From IMG/VR virus record IMGVR_UViG_3300046171_000216, positions 152-64,151 of that record: a stretch of DNA of 64,000 bases, one strand, 5' to 3'. Positions within the stretch are counted from its first letter, which is position 1. Each line of letters begins with the position of its first letter. Shown one piece after another: positions 21,461-30,637 of the stretch. The translations under genes and the position numbers were made by a program. Under the pieces are notes generated by a model. It was not told the DNA's origin and made no database searches. It saw only the letters and a program-made list of their open reading frames with translations. This DNA comes from a virus. Taxonomy: Duplodnaviria; Caudoviricetes.

Positions 21461-21631
21461 TTATATTGATATTCCCCTTTCTTCACGCAGTATCTTTTTA
21501 TAAGGTCCATCAGGATTTAAATCTCTGACTTCTTTTACTTCTTTCAAAAGATGATACAATCTAGCATCTCCTCCAAGAGAAAGAGCATTTACGATTGTTT
21601 CTAAATCGTTATCATTAATAGGTAATTCCAT
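21461..21631 (-). CDS. Small hypothetical protein (56 aa, not in the ORF track)
   Basis: MELPINDNDLETIVNALSLGGDARLYHLLKEV...; TAATG coupling to gp43. Confidence 0.65.
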   Translation of the reverse strand: MELPINDNDLETIVNALSLGGDARLYHLLKEVKEVRDLNPDGPYKKILREERGISI

Positions 21632-24132
21632 TAGGAAAAAAATAGTTCTAAGTTTACAGTTTTTTCAACATTCCACCCAATTGCATCTAAGATTGTTCTG
21701 AGTGGTTCAACAAAACTTTTGTCAAATTGTAAGTCATAATCGACATACTTTTCAAGGTCAAGTTCTCTAGGAAAATCTTGAATGAATGATATTACATTCT
21801 CTTGAATAATATTAGGTTTTTTCAAATAGAGAAATTTGACCTTTTCTCCATTTCCAATGAGTGAATACTTATTGTCAATCTTTTTCGCTTTCACATAATG
21901 ATTAAACAATAATGCACCCCGTATATGTATAGGAGTTCCCTTTGCATAGATTGTAGAATGTGCTTTATACTTCTGAACATTTGATGCAGTGCGAGGAAAT
22001 GCAATCTCTTCTGGTGGTAGTTTTTTGAATTGTTTTCGAGACTCATCAATGAAATCAATGACTTCTTCTTCAGTGCCATTCATCATTAACTTGAGTGCAC
22101 TTTTAATTAATGCACGACAAGGTGCAGGAGTTGAAGATTTAACTGCTTCAATACCCATCATCTTGAGATTTGGTTTTTCATATCGAACACCTTCACTATC
22201 CCATACATTTAAAATATATCTTTTCTTTGCTGTCCAGATGCCACGGTCTGCGATATTCTCTCGCTTCATTACCATCTTATTATCATAAGCATTTACGTAG
22301 TTCGCCAACGTTTCATAAGAACCCTCAATATACTTCTCAAATTCCACTTCACAGATCTTATTAAGGAACGACACAATGCTCGCAGCATTCTTTTCTCTGC
22401 CTTCGTATACCCTATCGACAAGATCACCCAAGTTGAGATAGATGCTGTCAGTATCACTAGCAATAACATAGTCTTCACCCTCCGTTTTTAGTATTTTGTT
22501 TAAGTATGCGTTCATTTTGTTTTCTATCCAACGAATAGAAACCTGCCCTGATAATGTAATTGCTTCCGCATTTGCTAATTTGTAATAGCGAAAATATTGA
22601 TTACCAATCGCACCATAGGCAGAATTAAGAGAAATCTTCTTTGCCATCTGGATATTATTACAACGGGCAATTTCCTTTTCAAGGTTTTTTGTAGGAGTCT
22701 TTTCATATGCCTTCTTTGCAGTAATCATCCTCTTCTTGAAGATAACTCTTTCGTTATACATCTTCTCCATCAACTCTGGTAAGAACCCACGAACATCTTT
22801 ACGATACATTGCACCATTTGCACAAACAGCATTATTCTTATACATCTCAAAAGTCAAATCTTCATTAAGGATTTTGTCAACTGTAACTGATGGATGTTTT
22901 GTATCCAATAAAGTTTCTGGAGAAATATTATATTGCATAATCAAATGCGGATATAGACTATTCAAGTCAAAAGAAACAACCCAATCATATTTGCCAGGTA
23001 TTGGTTCTTTTACATATGCACCAGCATACTTATCATTTTTATGTGACCTATTCTTTGGAGGTATAACAATATTCCTTCTCTTTAGATAATTGTAGATAAT
23101 CGTATCCCACATTCTTACCTGATAGAATACATCTTCATAATTTACCTTTGCATCATATGCCATCGTCAATGCAAGTTCAATCAACTTCATCTTATCCTCA
23201 AGACGGTCAACCAGTTCAACGTCAATGATGTTGTATTCTACAAACTTTTGCCAACCTTGAGTGTAGAAGTCTTTAAATGTATCAAATTCAGAGTGGTCAA
23301 GTTTCTTTTGTCCAAGTTCTACACTTGCAATATAATCCAAACGATATGACTCTTGTGCTTTGTAAGTAAACTTCTTATATAAGTCAAGATAATCTAACTG
23401 CGATACACCACCAATATCATAAGAAATTTGTTTACGTCCCATTATCGTAGTTTCTTCTTCAGTTACAAGACCCCAAGGTGACATTCTTTTCTTTAGTTTC
23501 TCACCAAGTATGCGGTCAATACGACGACAAAGATATGGAATATCATAAAACTTACTGTTCCAACCAGTAATAACTTCTGGTGTATTATCTTCTATCATCC
23601 ACCAGTTGATGAAATCTGTAAGAAGTTCATATTCTGTAGTAAATGATTTGTATATTACGTTCTCTTGTTTATTATTAAATGCCCCAAGACCCCAAGTGCG
23701 TATTTGTTTTGTTGTATAATCTTGTAATGAGATAAGTAATATTTCTTCTGCAGCAGATTCTACATCGGGGAATCCATATTCAGACTTTACCTCAATATCA
23801 ATTGTGGTTAATTTAATTTGTTCAATATCAAACTTTAATTCTTGCTCTGGATATTTGTCTGATATGTATTGATAGATAAATCTTTCATTACCATAGATAT
23901 TAAAGTTTTCAACCTCATTATAATTTTTTATAAAGTCTCTACATTCACGAACTGTACCAGGTTCAATTGGTTCAACGGGCAAACCATCAAGTGTTTTATA
24001 TTTTGTCTTTCTTTTTGAATCTACAAATAATGTTGGGTAGAACTTTTCACGAGTAGCAAAGTGTTTACCATCTTCATATCCACGAACCAAGAAATTATCT
24101 CCGACCATTTGGACGTTGGTATAAAATCTCAT
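21631..24132 (-). CDS. 43: Family B DNA polymerase (T4 gp43)
   Basis: DIE exonuclease motif, SFDLNSLYP, KISLNSAYG and SDTDS. Confidence 0.97.
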   Translation of the reverse strand: MRFYTNVQMVGDNFLVRGYEDGKHFATREKFYPTLFVDSKRKTKYKTLDGLPVEPIEPGTVRECRDFIKNYNEVENFNIYGNERFIYQYISDKYPEQELKFDIEQIKLTTIDIEVKSEYGFPDVESAAEEILLISLQDYTTKQIRTWGLGAFNNKQENVIYKSFTTEYELLTDFINWWMIEDNTPEVITGWNSKFYDIPYLCRRIDRILGEKLKKRMSPWGLVTEEETTIMGRKQISYDIGGVSQLDYLDLYKKFTYKAQESYRLDYIASVELGQKKLDHSEFDTFKDFYTQGWQKFVEYNIIDVELVDRLEDKMKLIELALTMAYDAKVNYEDVFYQVRMWDTIIYNYLKRRNIVIPPKNRSHKNDKYAGAYVKEPIPGKYDWVVSFDLNSLYPHLIMQYNISPETLLDTKHPSVTVDKILNEDLTFEMYKNNAVCANGAMYRKDVRGFLPELMEKMYNERVIFKKRMITAKKAYEKTPTKNLEKEIARCNNIQMAKKISLNSAYGAIGNQYFRYYKLANAEAITLSGQVSIRWIENKMNAYLNKILKTEGEDYVIASDTDSIYLNLGDLVDRVYEGREKNAASIVSFLNKICEVEFEKYIEGSYETLANYVNAYDNKMVMKRENIADRGIWTAKKRYILNVWDSEGVRYEKPNLKMMGIEAVKSSTPAPCRALIKSALKLMMNGTEEEVIDFIDESRKQFKKLPPEEIAFPRTASNVQKYKAHSTIYAKGTPIHIRGALLFNHYVKAKKIDNKYSLIGNGEKVKFLYLKKPNIIQENVISFIQDFPRELDLEKYVDYDLQFDKSFVEPLRTILDAIGWNVEKTVNLELFFS

Positions 24133-24380
24133 TACGTAGTTAGTTCAGTATATTTGTCTATAATTGTACCAGTTGGATCTGCAATCGTCAATATATCTTC
24201 TGACCTTATCATAAACTCTGTTTGATTTGTAATATCTGCTTTCCAAGGCACCATATCATCAATACCATTGTAAACGTATGGTTTAATCATTTTACAATTA
24301 GGATTACCTAATTCTGCATCAATTTCTATAATCTCTGCAATCAGAGTACAGTGAGCATTTAACATTACACATTTAATCAT
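24132..24380 (-). CDS. Hypothetical protein, Sm-like pattern
   Basis: IKCVML...LIAEI...IKPY...PW...IRSEDILTIADP. Confidence 0.55.
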   Translation of the reverse strand: MIKCVMLNAHCTLIAEIIEIDAELGNPNCKMIKPYVYNGIDDMVPWKADITNQTEFMIRSEDILTIADPTGTIIDKYTELTT

Positions 24381-24714
24381 TTCCTTCCTCCTTCAACTTA
24401 AACGATTCACATTTATCCTCATACATTTGAGTTACTGAATCAAGTGGTTCTACTATAGTTAGCACACTATCTATCGGTATAATCATTTTTTTATCTTTAG
24501 ATAAAACTACCCAAGGAATCATAGCGACATCAATTCCAAAATCTCCTCCTCTACTTTTATCTTCTTCAGTAACAAATTGTCTATCTTTTATTTCAATTAT
24601 ATGAGGATTTTCAAGCATGTATGCGTGTGCAACATCTTGACCTTCAGCAACTAATTCTTTCATTTCAGAGATTAGTTGTTCACCTGTTTTAAGTAAACTA
24701 ATTTTGATTGACAT
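24373..24714 (-). CDS. Hypothetical protein, Sm-like pattern
   Basis: KISLLKTGEQLIS...LENP...PW...IPIDSVLTIVEP. Confidence 0.6.
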   Translation of the reverse strand: MSIKISLLKTGEQLISEMKELVAEGQDVAHAYMLENPHIIEIKDRQFVTEEDKSRGGDFGIDVAMIPWVVLSKDKKMIIPIDSVLTIVEPLDSVTQMYEDKCESFKLKEEGND

Positions 24715-24730
24715 TTTTCTATCTAATTAA

Positions 24731-24800
24731 TTGGTAGATTCCTATAGCCGCTTATGCTGAACCTACCAAAGGGCATAACCGCAGCCAGTATTTCTCTGAC
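24731..24800 (-). ncRNA. Unassigned structured leader RNA (pseudoknot or switch)
   Basis: GUCAG/CUGGC hairpin; UUAUGC/GCAUAA stem whose loop UUGGUAGGUUC pairs over 11 nt with downstream GAAUCUACCAA. Confidence 0.6.
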
Positions 24801-24806
24801 AAATAT

Positions 24807-24835
24807 ATTATAGCACAACTTTTCCAATTGTCCAA
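24807..24835 (-). promoter_or_regulatory. Sigma70-type promoter with extended -10, in the purM 3' end
   Basis: TTGGACA...TG-C-TATAAT directly upstream of the structured leader. Confidence 0.6.
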
Positions 24836-25740
24836 CTCTTGTATCCAAATGCATCTATTGTATCGTGAGTATCAATTTCACTTTGCTCTGGTATTACCAC
24901 ACAATATCCAATACCAAGATTAAAAACTTTTTTCATTTCCTCTTCTGGTATCTCACCTGCTGACATTATCTTTTGAAATATTTTAGGTAACGGCCAAGAA
25001 TTGTAATCAATATCTGCCTTTAATCCATCAGGTAAGCAACGTGGCAAATTCTCTGGAATACCACCACCAGTAATATGTGCCATACCTAATATAGGAACTT
25101 CATTTATAAGTTCCATTACAAGTGGAGCATAGATATGAGTTGGTGTTAAAAGTTTTTTCGTTGCTTTTAATTTTTTCTGTCTTATTAAATGATTAACTAA
25201 ACTGTAACCATTACTATGAATACCACTACTTTCAATTCCGATTATAAGGTCTCCTTCTTGAATAATTGAACCATCAATTATTTCAGATGACTCAACGATT
25301 CCTGTACTAAATCCTGCGAGGTCAATATCAAAAGTCATTGGATGTTCAGCAGTTTCACCACCAATAAGTTCAACACCTGCTAACTCACATCCTTTAATGA
25401 TACCTGTCATAATATCATCTACTTTTGTATTGATTGTATTAAGAGAAATATAATCTAAAAAATATAAAGGTTTTGCACCACAAGTAATAATATCATTAAC
25501 ACACATTGCAACCAAATCAATACCTATAGTTTTATAGTTGTCTAGTCTACTACAAATACAAATTTTTGTTCCAACTCCATCAGTACCAGAAACTAAAATA
25601 GGTTCCTCATATCCACGAGGAACCTTATACATACCACCGAATCCACCGATGGTAGGTACTTTTTGTTTTAGTCTTTCAACGAAAGCATTACCTGCTTCAA
25701 TATCAACACCCGATGATTTATAGGTAGTTTTTTCTTGCAT
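24808..25740 (-). CDS. purM: Phosphoribosylformylglycinamidine cyclo-ligase (AIR synthetase)
   Basis: YKSSGVDI, TDGVGTK, GGETAEHP, SSGIHSNGYS, HITGGG and FNLGIG. Confidence 0.95.
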   Translation of the reverse strand: MQEKTTYKSSGVDIEAGNAFVERLKQKVPTIGGFGGMYKVPRGYEEPILVSGTDGVGTKICICSRLDNYKTIGIDLVAMCVNDIITCGAKPLYFLDYISLNTINTKVDDIMTGIIKGCELAGVELIGGETAEHPMTFDIDLAGFSTGIVESSEIIDGSIIQEGDLIIGIESSGIHSNGYSLVNHLIRQKKLKATKKLLTPTHIYAPLVMELINEVPILGMAHITGGGIPENLPRCLPDGLKADIDYNSWPLPKIFQKIMSAGEIPEEEMKKVFNLGIGYCVVIPEQSEIDTHDTIDAFGYKSWTIGKVVL

Positions 25741-26152
25741 GATGTTCTGGAACTATCTTACCCAATTTGACGGTAAGTAATCCATCTTTAAATAAAACCT
25801 CTCTGACTTCAATATCTTCTGATAGTGACCAGGTTCTGTTGAAAGATCTCTGAGCCAGTCCTTGATAGACATACTCGGATTCTTTCTCTTTTTCTTTTTT
25901 CTTTCCTTCAACAATAAGTTTTCCATATTCAGTATAAACATGAAGTTCATTTTTACTAAATCCTGCTAATGCTATTTCTAGTATTGATTCAACATTATTT
26001 ACATGAATAAGATTGTAGGGTGGATAGTTTGTTGCGGTTTCGTAAGAATTGAAAAAATTATCTAGGTATGAATCCATACCAATTCCATTCTTAGAAATAA
26101 TCTTCATTAGTTCTGGAAGATTAGCAGAGTGATACTTCTGTAGTGAAGTCAT
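25718..26152 (-). CDS. hsp20: Small heat shock protein (Hsp20, IbpA-like)
   Basis: NYPPYN, EIALAGF, QGLAQRSF and DGLL. Confidence 0.93.
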   Translation of the reverse strand: MTSLQKYHSANLPELMKIISKNGIGMDSYLDNFFNSYETATNYPPYNLIHVNNVESILEIALAGFSKNELHVYTEYGKLIVEGKKKEKEKESEYVYQGLAQRSFNRTWSLSEDIEVREVLFKDGLLTVKLGKIVPEHHARKNYL

Positions 26153-26205
26153 AATAGTTCTCCTTTAAAAGCGAGTGTAAATTGTGAACCCTTTCGGCAT
26201 TCTCA
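26150..26205 (-). promoter_or_regulatory. ROSE-like RNA thermometer in the hsp20 5' UTR
   Basis: CUCGCU-UUUAA-AGGAG-N7-AUG places the U(U/C)GCU motif opposite the SD; a GAAA-capped hairpin lies upstream; TAAATA at 26208-26213. Confidence 0.6.
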
Positions 26206-26221
26206 ATTATTTAACAATACA

Positions 26222-26632
26222 CTACCACTTTTCCATAATAATCTCTATAGTATTATCAACATCCATATGTTCGGTTGTTACATTAAAACCTTTTGATTGT
26301 GCGGTTTCTACTACAGCACATTTTGCATATGCCTGAGTTACTTTTTGTAGAAATCTTTCAATAGGAAATGATTCGTGCCAAGTATCAACCTCAGTAACTA
26401 ATTCAAATACTCCATCATCATTAATCTTAAATCCCGCTGTCATCGGTCTCATTACTTCTAAAGATGTATCATACTTAGTTACTCCTATTTCAACTTGAAC
26501 CTCTTCGTGTTGATGATTAGAAGGATTTTTTAACAATACATTTTCTGTTCCAGTATATCCAATAGTAAGCAATGCTTTAATTAAAAAATCTTTATCCTTC
26601 AGTTTCGTTTTGATGTTGGTGAAGTGAGACAT
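26222..26632 (-). CDS. DUF1257/Ycf35-like protein
   Basis: MSHFTNIKT...L.KAL..IG...FLQKVTQAYA...GF. Confidence 0.8.
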   Translation of the reverse strand: MSHFTNIKTKLKDKDFLIKALLTIGYTGTENVLLKNPSNHQHEEVQVEIGVTKYDTSLEVMRPMTAGFKINDDGVFELVTEVDTWHESFPIERFLQKVTQAYAKCAVVETAQSKGFNVTTEHMDVDNTIEIIMEKW

Positions 26633-26792
26633 TTTGTTTCTGATAGTATTCTGGTTTTAATTCTCTAGACTTAACATTACCTAGAGTATCTTCTATTTCT
26701 TTTGTAATATCTATACAAGTATCATTTGTTACTCCTTGAACTTCTTCAGTAACATTACCGTCTTGGTCAATACGAAAAATAATTCTTTGCAT
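26592..26792 (-). CDS. DUF2997-like protein
   Basis: IIFRIDQDGNVTEEVQGV...C...TKEIE..LG....ELKPEYYQ. Confidence 0.8.
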   Translation of the reverse strand: MQRIIFRIDQDGNVTEEVQGVTNDTCIDITKEIEDTLGNVKSRELKPEYYQKQNVSLHQHQNETEG

Positions 26793-26805
26793 GTTTCAGT
26801 AGCAT

Positions 26806-26852
26806 AAAAAAAAGACCCTCTGCCCCACTCTCTTGAGTTGCATCTTAGGTCT
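26806..26852 (-). terminator. Intrinsic terminator/attenuator hairpin
   Basis: AGACC...GGUCU stem with inner ACUC/GAGU, followed by a U8 tract. Confidence 0.65.
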
Positions 26853-26857
26853 AAAAA

Positions 26858-27043
26858 AGGAGGGAGGTTGGGTTCCTGTGTACCAACAAAAGATGGGCAT
26901 TACTACAGAGTAAATACATCTTTGCCTGAGACCCGACTGGTAAGTCGATTCTGCTTTCGCAGCAGCACCACCTGTGTCTCATCACCTTAACCAGCGATTG
27001 CCAGTAAGTTTATTCAGTCACTCCCATTGTTGCGTCCAACAAT
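26858..27043 (-). ncRNA. Large structured RNA, most likely the manA RNA motif
   Basis: About 185 nt non-coding; GGGAG/CUCCC closing stem plus UGAGAC/GUCUCA, CUGC-GAAA-GCAG, CGACU/AGUCG, AAAGAUG/CAUCUUU and GUUGG/CCAAC stems; family name is from recall, not a covariance-model search. Confidence 0.65.
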
Positions 27044-27046
27044 ATA

Positions 27047-27074
27047 AGTATAGCACAAAAAAAGGAGGTGTCAA
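27047..27074 (-). promoter_or_regulatory. Sigma70-type promoter for the structured RNA
   Basis: TTGACA-N16-TATACT with TGn extension; the spacer contains a T homopolymer that may be miscounted. Confidence 0.7.
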
Positions 27075-27511
27075 CCCTCCCCTTCTTCTTTCTTCTTTTT
27101 AGCACCAATATTATATTTCGTTTCTAAAATCCATTCACCTTTATCTTTAAATGATAACACTTTGATTTGATTAAGAGGTGCAATGTCTTGTATACGAACT
27201 ACATCGACCACACCAACCAATCCCCAATCAGCAAGAAGCTGAGCAATACGGTTGCGACGCTGAACATCGTTAGAAGTAAGGTTAGCGTGTTTTCCATCAA
27301 GAGCAAAAAGTTCTTTAAAGTGGACAAGATAATACCTCCCTTGCTTATGAAGTATGTGACAACTTTGATATATTTTCTTTTCTTTCCTACTTGCTACACC
27401 AATTCTTGTGAGAGTTTCTCTGACTTTCAGGAAATCATCTGGTTCATTCAATGTTACCTCCACCATTTGGTCGGGAGACCATGTGACGACAGGTTCTTTA
27501 ACAACACTCAT
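27071..27511 (-). CDS. regA: Translational repressor RegA
   Basis: DFLKVRETLTRIGVA, QSCHILHKQGRYYLVHFKELF. Confidence 0.96.
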   Translation of the reverse strand: MSVVKEPVVTWSPDQMVEVTLNEPDDFLKVRETLTRIGVASRKEKKIYQSCHILHKQGRYYLVHFKELFALDGKHANLTSNDVQRRNRIAQLLADWGLVGVVDVVRIQDIAPLNQIKVLSFKDKGEWILETKYNIGAKKKKEEGEG

Positions 27512-27888
27512 TTCGCTCCTCCAGTATCAAATTTAGATTTTATAAAGTTGAGTTGTTTTTTTGTCAGAATTTTCAAAGCTTGTTTTGCTTTTTCGTTACT
27601 ATAACCATAATAACGTTTCACATAATCAAGGTCTTTAATCATATCCTTACGAAGCCAAGGAGAGAATCTCTTCTTAGTTCTGAGAGTATTTATATAAAAG
27701 TCGTATTGCATCCGCTTTGGTAAGAAATTATACTTATTCATTTCGTTAGCAAAAAGGATTGCATCTAAGTGTCCTGAGAAACAACGATTGATTATGTATG
27801 GTGGATAATCTTTCTCTACTAGAGGATCTTCATCTATTAAATTTTTCTTTGTTTGGTTGATTGAGTTCAACCAGTCTTTCAGTTCCAT
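27508..27888 (-). CDS. 62: Clamp loader small subunit (T4 gp62)
   Basis: Start [11 protein letters not shown]; [13 protein letters not shown] and YYGYS; position before regA. Confidence 0.9.
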
Positions 27889-30637
27889 CTTCATTATCAA
27901 AATAGTTTTCACAAGAGCAGACAAGATTACGATCTCCATAAACATTGTCAATTCGTGATATCGCTGGCCAAAACTTATTTGTTTGATTGGCAGGATACGC
28001 TGCTTCATCACGACTATAATTATACACCCATTCATCTGAACTTACAACCTTTGCTGTATGGGGTGCGTTTTTCAAGATATCTTTATTCTTATCAATCTCT
28101 CTTCGGATACTTACCATTGCTGAACCAAATCTTTCAAGTTCTTCTAATGATTCACTTTCAGTTGGTTCTACCATTACTGTTCCTGTAACTGGCCAAGATA
28201 ATGTAGGTGCGTGAAAACCATAATCCATCAATCTCTTTGCCACATCTTCAGCACTAATACCATCAAAATATCGAACATCAAATATACATTCGTGTGCCAC
28301 TCTATCGTTTGCACCTTTATATAATACTTTGAAGAATGGTTCAATACGATGCACTAACCAGTTTGCAGTAAGTAAAGATATTTCACTTGCCTTTCTTAAT
28401 CCATCAGCACCCATCATTCTTATATACATCCAACTGATTGGAAGTATAGATGCACTACCTTGAATTGCTGCTGATACTCGATGGTTCATAAAAGGAACAA
28501 GATGTTCTGCAACACCAATAGGACCAACACCAGGACCACCACCACCGTGAGGAATACAGAATGTCTTATGTAAATTCATATGGCATACATCAATACCATA
28601 CTCACAAGGTTTTGCTAATCCGACTTGTGCATTTAGATTTGCACCATCAAGATATACCTGTCCACCACTCTCGTGAACAATTTTACAAATGTCCTTAATG
28701 GTTGGTTCAAATACACCGTGAGTTGATGGATATGTAATCATAATACAAGACAACTCAAGACAGTTCATAAGTGCTTGCTTTTCTAAATCCTTTAAATCTA
28801 TATTACCTTCTTCATCACATTTAACAGGAACAATCTTCATACCTGCCATCACTGCTGATGCAGGATTAGTTCCGTGTGCACTTGTAGGTATCAAACATAC
28901 ATTTCTTTTTGTATCACCATTACTTCTGTGATATTCTTGTATTGCAAGTAAACCTGCATACTCTCCCTGTGAACCTGCATTTGGTTGTAATGATACTTCT
29001 TCAAATCCAGTAATATCACATAACCATTCTTGTAAATCAAACATAATTCTTTGGTATCCAAGAGTTTGATTTTCTGGTGCGAATGGATGCATATTCGCAA
29101 ACTCATTCCAACTTACAGGCATAAGTTCTGATGCTGCATTTAATTTCATAGTACAACTTCCAAGTGGCATCATACCATTTACTAATGAGAAATCTTTTGA
29201 TACTAACTCATTAATGTATCTCATCATATTAGTTTCACTTTGATACTTATTGAAAACATCTTGTCTTAACCAAGGTTGTGTTCTCTCTGGAATATCTTTC
29301 CACTTGTATCTACCAACTGACTCAACAATATGATCAATACTATCACTTTTGTTTACTAAATCTTGTTGTGAATTAAGAATATCTTTTATCTCATCAAGAG
29401 TCGTAAGTTCATCTAAAGTAATGATAGTATGGTCATCTTCATAACGAACATTGTATCCTTCAACAGTAAGAAAACTTCTGAATCGCACTGTATCAAAACC
29501 TTCAGTATCATCTACCTCAATACCTAACCAGAATAATCCTTTTCTTAATATTTCACGATAAGTTAGAATACGATTTGCAATTCTTTTGAGTCCTTCTGCT
29601 CCGTGATATGCAGCATAAAATCCTGCCATATTTGCAAGTAGTGCTTGTGCTGTGCATATGTTAGATGTTGCCTTATCTCTTCTTATATGCTGCTCTCTAG
29701 TCTGTAGTGCCAATCGTAGTGCTTTGTTACCTTGAGCGTCTACAGACTGTCCTACTATCCTACCAGGTATTTTTCTTTTATACTTATCTGTTGTTGCAAA
29801 GAATGCTGCGTGTGGACCACCAAATCCCATTGGTACACCAAATCTTTGCATACTACCAACTGCAACATCAAAACCCATTTCACCTACAGGTTGCATAAGA
29901 ACCTGTGCTAATGGATCGACAATTGCAATCTTCATACACTTACAAACTTCTGCTAATCTTAATACTCCATCACGATGTCTTAAATTACCGTGACTATTTG
30001 GTAATTGTACAATGACTCCAAATGCATCAGAAAAGAAAGCGATTGGTATTGAACCATCAAAATCAATTTTAATGATATTAATTCCTAGTGGTCTTGCTCT
30101 TGTTTGTAATACTTCTAGTGTTTGTGGGAATATTTTATCATCAACTATAAAATCTTTCTTCTTACTTTGACTATGTGCAAGTAACATTGCTTCTGCTGCT
30201 GCAGTTCCTTCATCTAACAATGATGCATTTGCAACTGGTAATCCAGTAAGTTCTGTAATTAATGTTTGATAATTAAATAATGCTTCTAATCTACCCTGTG
30301 ATATCTCTGCCTGGTATGGAGTATAAGATGTATACCAAGCAGGATTTTCAAATACATTACGAAGAATTACTGATGGTGTAATTGTGCCATAGTATCCTTG
30401 ACCTATCAAACTTCTCTTAACAACATTATGACTTGCAATATCTTTTAATTCTGTAAGTGCCTGTTGCTCACTACATCCTTCTGGTAATTTACTATCACCA
30501 CGAAGTAAAATTGAATCAGGAACAATCTCTCTGACCAATTCATCTATAGTTGATAGACCAAGATCAGCAAGCATTTTGCGTTGTTCTGATTCTGATGGTC
30601 CGATATGACGTTGAATAAATTCTGACATATTACCCAT
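27830..30637 (-). CDS. gcvP: Glycine dehydrogenase (decarboxylating), glycine cleavage P protein
   Basis: [38 protein letters not shown]-lysine motif [20 protein letters not shown] and GDRNLVC. Confidence 0.97.

Follow-up and report, generated by a model that had tools for sequence, protein, structure and literature searches.

Do the structured RNAs between regA and the DNA polymerase gene gp43 of a marine cyanomyovirus belong to a single regulatory circuit, or are they separate units that share one interval? The question is posed by IMG/VR record IMGVR_UViG_3300046171_000216, estimated to be 34% complete, nearly all of whose 64,151 nucleotides (nt) make up the 64,000-nt stretch analysed here (the window). 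An original prediction, made from the sequence alone, had placed in this interval an RNA-centred control hub for the replication module. Cyanomyoviruses kill a large share of marine picocyanobacteria, and to our knowledge little is known of how they control translation of their replication genes. The reading favoured here, with a probability of roughly 0.6, is that the interval holds three independent early units, each with its own promoter cassette and leader RNA, namely a manA RNA, a ROSE-like hsp20 leader and an element termed E3 that would act in cis on translation initiation.

The three RNAs part company in other phages. The manA RNA lies between gp23 and small open reading frames (ORFs) before gp3-uvsY in P-HM1 and P-RSM4, after pstS in P-SSM4, between a ferredoxin gene and a carbamoyltransferase gene in P-SSM7, after nrdB and before transaldolase in P-RSM6, and between regA and a purS-like gene in P-SSM2. 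E3 is found elsewhere behind gp23 or gp5, or before thyX, and the ROSE-like leader moves together with hsp20. In P-HM1 and S-T4 the order regA-hsp20-Sm-like-gp43 is retained, and the interval lacks both manA and E3. Across regA and the first RNA the closest cultured relatives are P-SSM2 and P-SSM5, at 83% identity, and none of the 37 phage records that match a 3.6-kilobase (kb) query covers 80% of it. The source is a P-SSM2-like marine cyanomyovirus contig whose regA-gp43 interval is therefore hyperplastic and modular. The three RNAs appear to be co-located because the interval is a favoured insertion site, and not because they form a common circuit; what looks like a hub has arisen as modular cassettes were shuffled between regA and gp43.

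Everything that had been listed for the region (regA, three structured leaders, hsp20, purM, two Sm-like ORFs and gp43) is present. Every feature from gp62 to gp43 is on the minus strand, in the following order (lengths of proteins in amino acids, aa).

Ends at 27508, minus strand: gp62, clamp loader (PF16790).
27511-27071, minus strand: regA, translational repressor, 146 aa (PF01818, E 5.9e-45; phrog_242, E 5.5e-64).
27070-26793, minus strand: intergenic, 278 nt.
26792-26592, minus strand: DUF2997 ORF, 66 aa (PF11211, E 4.9e-18).
26632-26222, minus strand: DUF1257 (Ycf35-like) ORF, 136 aa (PF06868, E 6.7e-15).
26221-26153, minus strand: intergenic, 69 nt.
26152-25718, minus strand: hsp20, IbpA-like small heat-shock protein, 144 aa (PF00011, E 5.3e-14; phrog_432, E 7.9e-50).
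25740-24808, minus strand: purM, 310 aa (PF00586, PF02769; phrog_1207, E 4.6e-142).
24807-24715, minus strand: intergenic, 93 nt.
24714-24373, minus strand: Sm-like protein a (DUF6561), 113 aa (PF20198, E 1.3e-07, 31.9 bits).
24380-24132, minus strand: Sm-like protein b (DUF6561), 82 aa (PF20198, E 9e-29, 99.8 bits).
21631-24132, minus strand: ORF for gp43 DNA polymerase, 833 aa, closing the E3-headed operon.

The gp43 label is based on phmmer comparison with related loci and on annotated synteny in P-HM1 and S-T4, with no family scan. Several of these frames overlap: the purM start lies within the hsp20 end by 23 nt, protein b overlaps both the protein a stop and the gp43 start, and the gp43 ATG at 24132 shares one base with the protein b stop codon. 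In the proposed scheme, unit 1 would comprise manA with a terminator-type platform, followed by DUF2997 and DUF1257. In unit 2 a short ROSE-like thermometer would hide the hsp20 Shine-Dalgarno (SD) sequence, with purM translationally coupled to hsp20. Unit 3 would begin with E3, continue through an A/U-rich spacer of 18-22 nt, and end with the two overlapping Sm-like genes running into gp43.

Each of the RNAs has a promoter-like site of its own. A composite element, consisting of a GC-rich hairpin with a TTGACA loop, a T run and an extended -10 box, recurs in many IMG/VR loci (for example at 27047-27084 of the window, minus strand, and at L477:1054-1090 and L478:1444-1480 in related loci), where it precedes manA, hsp20, E3 or the Sm-like genes, depending on the phage. 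The Sm-like genes of P-HM1 and S-T4 are preceded only by the TTGACA-loop hairpin, a TATAAT box and a short plain leader. The sites in the window are these.

27084-27047, minus strand: composite hairpin and promoter before manA (GGAGG/CCTCC stem, T run, then TGCTATACT).
26216-26209, minus strand: extended -10 box TGTTAAAT for the hsp20 transcript, read from the sequence.
24834-24807, minus strand: E3 promoter TGGACA-16-TATAAT, with TG, 11 of 12 consensus matches.

The manA promoter (TTGACA-16-TATACT, 27074-27047, with TG) likewise matches the consensus at 11 of 12 positions. Its TTGACA -35 box sits in the loop of the GGAGG/CCTCC hairpin and holds the regA stop codon, and manA begins 5 nt past the -10 box. 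Ten other loci were examined for this layout, and no motif was found in one (L464); hairpin plus promoter precede manA in eight of the nine in which its start was located, P-SSM4 having both promoter boxes without the hairpin. At the position of the hsp20 -10 box TGTTAAAT, homologous hsp20 loci have TGGTTAAAT or TGGTATAAT. The E3 promoter is embedded in the last codons of purM, whose stop codon falls inside the -10 box, and it is conserved together with the purM 3' end in related contigs; its location inside purM accounts for the missing hairpin.

Some of this evidence weighs against three promoter-headed units. Promoter-like sites in the region number 13, not above the 17.7 (standard deviation 4.6) of shuffled sequence, so that weight can be given only to the two strongest sites and to their being conserved among relatives, and the transcription starts, terminator and operon structure are inferred from the sequence.

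The third RNA, E3, is the uncatalogued, novel part of the region. It occupies the intergenic stretch between purM and the first Sm-like gene.

24800-24733, minus strand: whole E3 element, 68 nt, conserved 3' of the promoter.
24800-24784, minus strand: P0, an optional 5' hairpin (GUCAG...CUGGC), 84% of cells paired.
24784-24733, minus strand: E3 core, 52 nt, from CUGCGG to CUACC, a proposed H-type pseudoknot.
24732-24715, minus strand: A/U-rich linker from E3 to the start codon, unconserved in sequence and fixed in length.

The element was collected by four anchor scans of IMG/VR and de-duplicated by sequence, which gave 55 distinct versions in at least 83 distinct contexts, drawn from uncultured cyanomyovirus contigs plus P-SSM2 and P-SSM5. 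Two helices define the core. S1 (UUAUGC/GCAUAA) pairs 24778-24773 with 24757-24752, and S2 (GGUAGGUUC/GAAUCUACC), which crosses it, pairs 24767-24759 with 24741-24733. Both are 100% paired in the 55 distinct sequences, with no pair broken, and when the partners are slid by 1-3 columns pairing falls to 25-45%. One S1 pair occurs as G-C in 42 sequences, C-G in 12 and U-A in one; a second changes once from C-G to U-G. Three S2 pairs also vary, from U-A to U-G (three sequences), A-U to G-U (one) and G-U to G-C (11). Loop L1 differs in length, and P0 either varies with retention of pairing (U-G, U-A, C-G) or, in several lineages, is replaced by unrelated sequence. E3 fits an H-type pseudoknot to judge from this paired variation, as had been proposed for the leader.

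The case has its weaknesses. Support for the pseudoknot amounts to one pair that changes on both sides and four one-sided changes, and 10 of the 15 S1 and S2 pairs never vary, so that they are uninformative either way. Collection by exact core anchors of 14-20 nt inflates the measured conservation. Half-anchored scans brought in one true variant (L341) among at least 24 and at least seven non-canonical rows, the remainder being chance matches. Nor is E3 essential for the gp43 operon, since five cultured cyanophage genomes are without it: an E3 model (R1) found none in P-HM1, P-SSM4, P-SSM7, P-RSM4 or P-RSM6 (best E 0.055).

E3 matches no Rfam family at E<=10 in a search of 3.6 kb, and a 111-nt search with laxer filters returned nothing but one spurious 10-bit row. 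By blastn it is present, at 89-91% identity, in six of 50,697 phage records: two are of single-cell viruses, three of P-SSM2 and one of P-SSM5. The P-SSM2 copy (NC_006883, 144012-144103) has hsp20 on one side and PSSM2_175 on the other, and does not follow purM. No second copy turned up in the present, 34%-complete record, the only match at up to three mismatches being the single one in the window and in the 64,151-nt record. No earlier description was found in literature on cyanophage pseudoknots, the P-SSM2 transcriptome or early promoters. More than 10,000 viral structured RNAs are predicted in PMC10690425, as excerpts of that paper state, and E3 may already be among them; its motif strings are absent from six of the supplementary files, three further files not being covered.

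Two other origins for the conserved sequence were considered and rejected. By exact matching, E3 is not a copy or mimic of a host RNA: among 185,579 species genomes the 20-nt anchor has a single occurrence, on a 3,957-nt contig of a metagenome-assembled genome. Nor is it a small upstream ORF: the AUG in S1, which would open an ORF of 43 aa, is lost in the C and U variants.

The position of E3 is constrained as well. Of 144 E3 matches, 143 are followed on the same strand by the start of an ORF of at least 35 aa, and the end of S2 lies 18-22 nt from the ATG in 77 of the 83 distinct contexts (18 nt in 41, 19 in 19, 20 in 14, 21 in two and 22 in one). The outliers stand at 4 nt (two), 29 nt (one), 31 nt (two) and 35 nt (one), and both contexts at 4 nt have an in-frame ATG at 19 nt. 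Sequence identity across the 83 contexts is 98.4% in the core, 61% in the first 90 nt of the ORF, 52% upstream and 54% in the linker, which averages 88% A+U. The first gene after E3 is one of the following.

58 of 83 contexts: Sm-like DUF6561 protein a.
11 of 83: phrog_3704 (PSSM2_175-like; no Pfam match).
4 of 83: purM.
4 of 83: phrog_878, followed by thyX, a regulator and phoH.
3 of 83: an acidic ORF of 37-38 aa after gp23, followed by gp3-like, uvsY and uvsW.
2 of 83: DUF7294, after gp5.
1 of 83: other.

No context among the 83 has gene 32 downstream of E3. Most of the 56 longer loci run from hsp20 or purM through E3 to Sm-like a, Sm-like b and gp43, and in some phrog_3704 and purM lie between E3 and Sm-like a. 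E3 is therefore an optional, lineage-restricted and strongly constrained module that heads several DNA-metabolism operons. Two observations on neighbouring genes may be added. In one contig an HNH endonuclease gene (L186:406-1434) lies between purM and E3, a further sign of the interval taking up mobile DNA. PSSM2_175 itself (L001:2624-3289, 222 aa, phrog_3704) is labelled 'ferredoxin' or 'purM' in records and PHROGs, a label that looks unsupported because the protein has no Pfam match at E 0.01.

How, then, might E3 work? It would act in cis on translation initiation, being placed where the 5' edge of the 30S subunit meets the mRNA. Four features together suggest that it acts on initiation through a specific partner: it stands at a fixed distance from the AUG, its unpaired nucleotides are invariant, no conserved platform is present and it occurs before several operons. 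E3 is most likely a translational operator. The overlapping frames of a, b and gp43 would pass its effect through to the polymerase. In this way E3 could set the output of the Sm-like/gp43 operon and, in E3-bearing relatives, that of the gp3-uvsY-uvsW, thyX and purM operons. That the partner is a trans-acting protein is given somewhat less than an even chance; the Sm-like proteins encoded downstream would be the first candidates, with RegA, gp43 and gp32 also possible. More tentatively, E3 may be a shared operator of a phage replication regulon, read by Sm-like ring proteins or by a small nucleotide-type ligand. If so, uncultured Prochlorococcus myoviruses would co-set the translation of their DNA-synthesis genes; an Sm-like reader would provide the first RNA partner and first function for the family of PDB entry 3BY7, and a ligand reader would define a new phage-only riboswitch class.

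A competing view, possible but doubtful, is that E3 belongs to a mobile promoter-leader cassette and is unregulated, a constitutive leader that stabilises the mRNA or recruits ribosomes on messages without an SD, and is kept uniform by recent recombinational spread. E3 does always lie directly 3' of an early-type promoter, often a TTGACA-loop hairpin with TATAAT, in an arrangement resembling the PeSL cassettes (excerpts of PMC4122927). It occupies several slots and is missing from the same slot in relatives, and the fixed distance to the AUG, with no obvious SD in the linker, would suit a positioning element. However, identity falls sharply at both borders of the core and the flanks differ, so that recent copying of a block does not by itself explain E3. 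One pair exists in G-C, C-G and U-A states, which shows that time has elapsed under structural selection, and a generic stabiliser would need no invariant loops.

That E3 is a riboswitch aptamer for a nucleotide-related metabolite or signal, whose folded form blocks access of the 30S subunit, is unlikely. Small pseudoknot aptamers have near-invariant unpaired nucleotides around their helices, and E3 has such nucleotides (CUGCGG, CCC and GCGGCKAUAG) around two helices. It also lies within 5' untranslated regions (UTRs) belonging to genes for DNA and nucleotide metabolism (the gp43 operon, purM, thyX and uvsY-uvsW), in the same slots as the riboswitch candidate manA. Yet there is no conserved expression platform, as the linker has 54% identity and neither a terminator nor an anti-SD lies between E3 and the AUG. 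Many of the first genes are non-metabolic, coding for Sm-like proteins or short acidic ORFs, and part of the gene set has no assigned function; the helices hardly vary, unlike those of most riboswitch classes; and no ligand can be named. A function other than an operator, a constitutive leader or a riboswitch is rated a little less probable again.

The original prediction joined the three RNAs, RegA, the Sm-like proteins and gp43 into one layered post-transcriptional circuit that would make chaperone, purine and polymerase output respond to temperature or metabolite state. The parts do all fall on one strand within 3.4 kb, the interval from regA to gp43 of P-SSM2 and P-SSM5 likewise holds all three RNAs, and the Sm-like proteins and RegA are RNA binders by family. 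The circuit is nevertheless improbable, for nothing ties the parts together: each RNA occurs without the others, manA and E3 in the other slots given above and the hsp20 leader with its gene, each has its own promoter cassette, and no shared sequence or pairing was seen among the three. Weakest of all, and very improbable, is that E3 is not an RNA and marks a DNA-level recombination, homing or replication signal: the extreme sequence conservation and the HNH endonuclease gene just upstream in one context would suit such a site, but orientation and distance to the start codon are fixed in 77 of 83 contexts, E3 is always downstream of a -10 box, and RNA-type pairs, G-U among them, are kept at each of the six variable stem positions.

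In contrast to E3, the first RNA turned out to be already known. It is a full-length member of the manA motif, scoring far above the gathering cut-off of 55.2 bits over model positions 1-192 of 192, and is the sole Rfam match above gathering in the 64-kb window.

27042-26857, minus strand: manA RNA motif (RF01745), orphan riboswitch candidate, 189.1 bits.
26852-26806, minus strand: terminator-like hairpin AGACCU...GGGUCU and U run, -13.6 kcal/mol by RNAfold.

According to excerpts of Weinberg et al. 2010 (PMC2864571), manA was reported in T4-like cyanophages and rated a probable riboswitch; its sites are 5' UTRs of mannose/fructose, nucleotide-synthesis, ibpA chaperone and photosynthesis genes, the links to nucleotide synthesis and ibpA being reported for cyanophages. 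Its role was still called unverified in 2023 (excerpts of PMC9964418). What does stand of the claim made for RNA 1 is the promoter-to-terminator arrangement, both ends of which are consensus matches. The DUF2997 start is 65 nt past the manA end, which places manA in a potential 5' UTR, and the terminator-like hairpin (26852-26813) and its U run (26812-26806) lie between, with 13 nt separating the U run from the start. If the folded sequence also takes in the manA 3' end, the CCUCCC strand of that end pairs with the terminator region instead, and the two pairings could be alternatives, as in terminator-type riboswitch platforms. A terminator-like hairpin is found 3' of manA in the window, P-HM1 and P-SSM7, and P-SSM2 and P-RSM6 have an ORF immediately after it. 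Two relatives have a tRNA gene beginning 4-5 nt after the manA end (L040:112-406 and L002:1217-1492); tRNA processing could there define the manA 3' end and free the RNA, which bears on the assumption that it acts only in cis.

The hsp20 leader had been described as ROSE-like, and this holds for its architecture.

26206-26153, minus strand: ROSE-like hsp20 leader (ROSE_3 match, fold, and 82.2 bits with model R2).

In the predicted fold, H1 (26206-26182) contains a bulged G and is capped by a GAAA loop, and in H2 (26175-26160) CUC-G-CUU pairs with the AAGGAG SD sequence, with a bulged G opposite and the AUG unpaired. Twenty distinct leaders were aligned from related contigs and P-SSM2, L014, with a mis-set ORF start, being left out. 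Changes on both sides are seen in the H1 stem, the H1 loop alternates between GAAA, UUCG, GAUA and GUAA, and TCGCT is invariant in all 20. Model R2, built from these leaders, gives 35 matches at E<=0.001 in 47 sources, including P-HM1 and not S-T4; 21 of them are stretches extracted before hsp20 or overlap the annotated hsp20 start of P-HM1, the rest not having been checked individually. In the R2 alignment 99.7% of cells are paired (99.5% in H2), four of 11 pairs change on both sides, and covariation scores 0.215, where shuffles give 0.075 and slid partners no more than 0.038. Covariation, which the original prediction put forward as a check on its leaders, is found in the hsp20 leader across these 35 matches; E3 has its one two-sided pair beside a majority of invariant ones. 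The hsp20 leader is ROSE-like in its apparent working mode, and it looks like a heat-sensing RNA thermometer that would hide the hsp20 SD sequence.

Several points tell against that assignment. The ROSE_3 model (RF02523) matches 26206-26147 with 25.4 bits where its cut-off is 43 (E 0.029 with 3.6 kb searched), so that the leader is not a ROSE_3 member by the Rfam threshold, and in a larger Rfam search one further locus (L197) reached E 1, its 29.3 bits also falling short. The R2 alignment (A6) was itself fitted to the model. In the energy model pairing is lost gradually from 10 to 42 C, and most of the SD hairpin is still closed at 42 C, a temperature far above those at which the host grows. 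No description of a cyanophage thermometer was found in titles and abstracts of the literature on RNA thermometers and cyanophages, and the word phage is absent from PMC4152365. The annotated hsp20 start of P-HM1 (L477 position 576) falls inside an R2 match (L477:567-635; NC_015280, about 130063-130131) and is probably too far upstream, because it lies within the ROSE-like leader.

The claim that the two small ORFs before gp43 have an Sm-like fold is borne out by family and by model. Both score above the 27-bit cut-off of PF20198. AlphaFold models from alignments of 29 and 31 sequences have a pLDDT of 95.5 for protein b and 83.8 for protein a. Protein b matches PDB 3BY7, an entry titled structurally similar to Sm/LSm-like RNA-binding proteins, with Z 12.6 and a root-mean-square deviation (rmsd) of 1.6 A over 75 residues (Foldseek E 4.8e-4; sequence-profile match E 6e-6), and ordinary Sm/LSm chains rank after it at Z 5-6. 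For protein a the Foldseek E is 2e-6, the rmsd 0.8-1.4 A for four of five chains, and the target-normalised TM score 0.94-0.96 for the three best chains. The modelled fold is accordingly Sm-like in both, within DUF6561, a family with members in 52 phage records, none of which reaches 60% identity to protein a. One lineage has a third Sm-like paralogue type, phrog_527, which matches phrog_431 too (L166:1714-1995), between an E3-led short ORF and thyX.

Beyond the interval, a gene for a 935-aa glycine cleavage P-protein (27833-30637, minus strand; PF02347, E 4.7e-170, and PF21478) lies immediately upstream of gp62. With 73% identity to the glycine dehydrogenases annotated in P-HM1, P-HM2 and MED4-213, it is a known auxiliary metabolic gene. 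The longest gp62 ORF (27508-28035, minus strand, 175 aa) overlaps the end of this gene by about 200 nt; its true start is probably further downstream, because the Pfam clamp-loader match spans residues 54-160 only.

The outcome for the hub is negative, yet it matters in showing that co-location reflects cassette shuffling. The interval offers three testable RNA elements, all of them present in the cultured phage P-SSM2. The manA copy of the window is a clear promoter-to-terminator unit, useful in the hunt for a ligand of a long-standing orphan motif. The ROSE-like leader, if it is a thermometer, would be the first described on a cyanophage gene within the literature searched, and would link phage chaperone and purM output to temperature. 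E3 is a concrete RNA candidate for the structurally solved but functionless cyanophage Sm-like proteins, and may define a replication regulon.

For the layout as a whole the nearest parallel is found in T4-like phages, in the composite terminator/promoter cassettes known as PeSL and reportedly described in 2010 by Arbiol. The cassettes share a hairpin, a T run and an early sigma-70-type promoter at the borders of variable modules. Such cassettes stand here before manA and hsp20, and before E3 in other contigs, and the modules come and go between relatives, as excerpts of Comeau 2014 (PMC4122927) propose for module shuffling by PeSL in T4-like phages; cyanophages are mentioned 0 times in the text of that paper. 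The difference is that here the -35 box lies in the hairpin loop, and that E3 and manA are extra transcribed structures downstream, outside the PeSL definition. The manA copy shows no essential difference from the published motif, its first 3' genes being DUF2997 and DUF1257.

The hsp20 leader compares with the short ROSE-like ibpA thermometers of Pseudomonas. These have two hairpins, a UTR of about 60 nt, an unpaired AUG and an SD imperfectly paired with U(U/C)GCU (excerpts of Krajewski et al. 2013, PMC3669281), and a bulged G opposite the SD is named as a ROSE-like feature in excerpts of PMC4152365. The predicted phage leader shares all of this, at about 55 nt, with the SD in the 3' hairpin; from ROSE_3 it differs in its marine cyanophage carrier and in scores of 25-29 bits.

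With 3BY7, which is pentameric (PMC3710371), both Sm-like proteins share a fold of five strands and a C-terminal helix. Sequence identity is 22-27%, and the window ORFs differ in being tandem paralogues translationally coupled to gp43.

For E3 the closest counterpart is the autoregulatory leader of T4 gene 32, in which a 5' pseudoknot is followed by an unstructured A/U-rich stretch. That leader is mentioned in PMC10690425, excerpts of which state that Rfam has no model of it. E3 differs in its place, before Sm-like/gp43, purM, thyX and gp3-uvsY-uvsW and not before gene 32, and has a spacer of 18-22 nt. The likeness is one of anatomy: a 5'-proximal H-type pseudoknot, as proposed for E3, and then a stretch of 88% A+U leading to the start codon.

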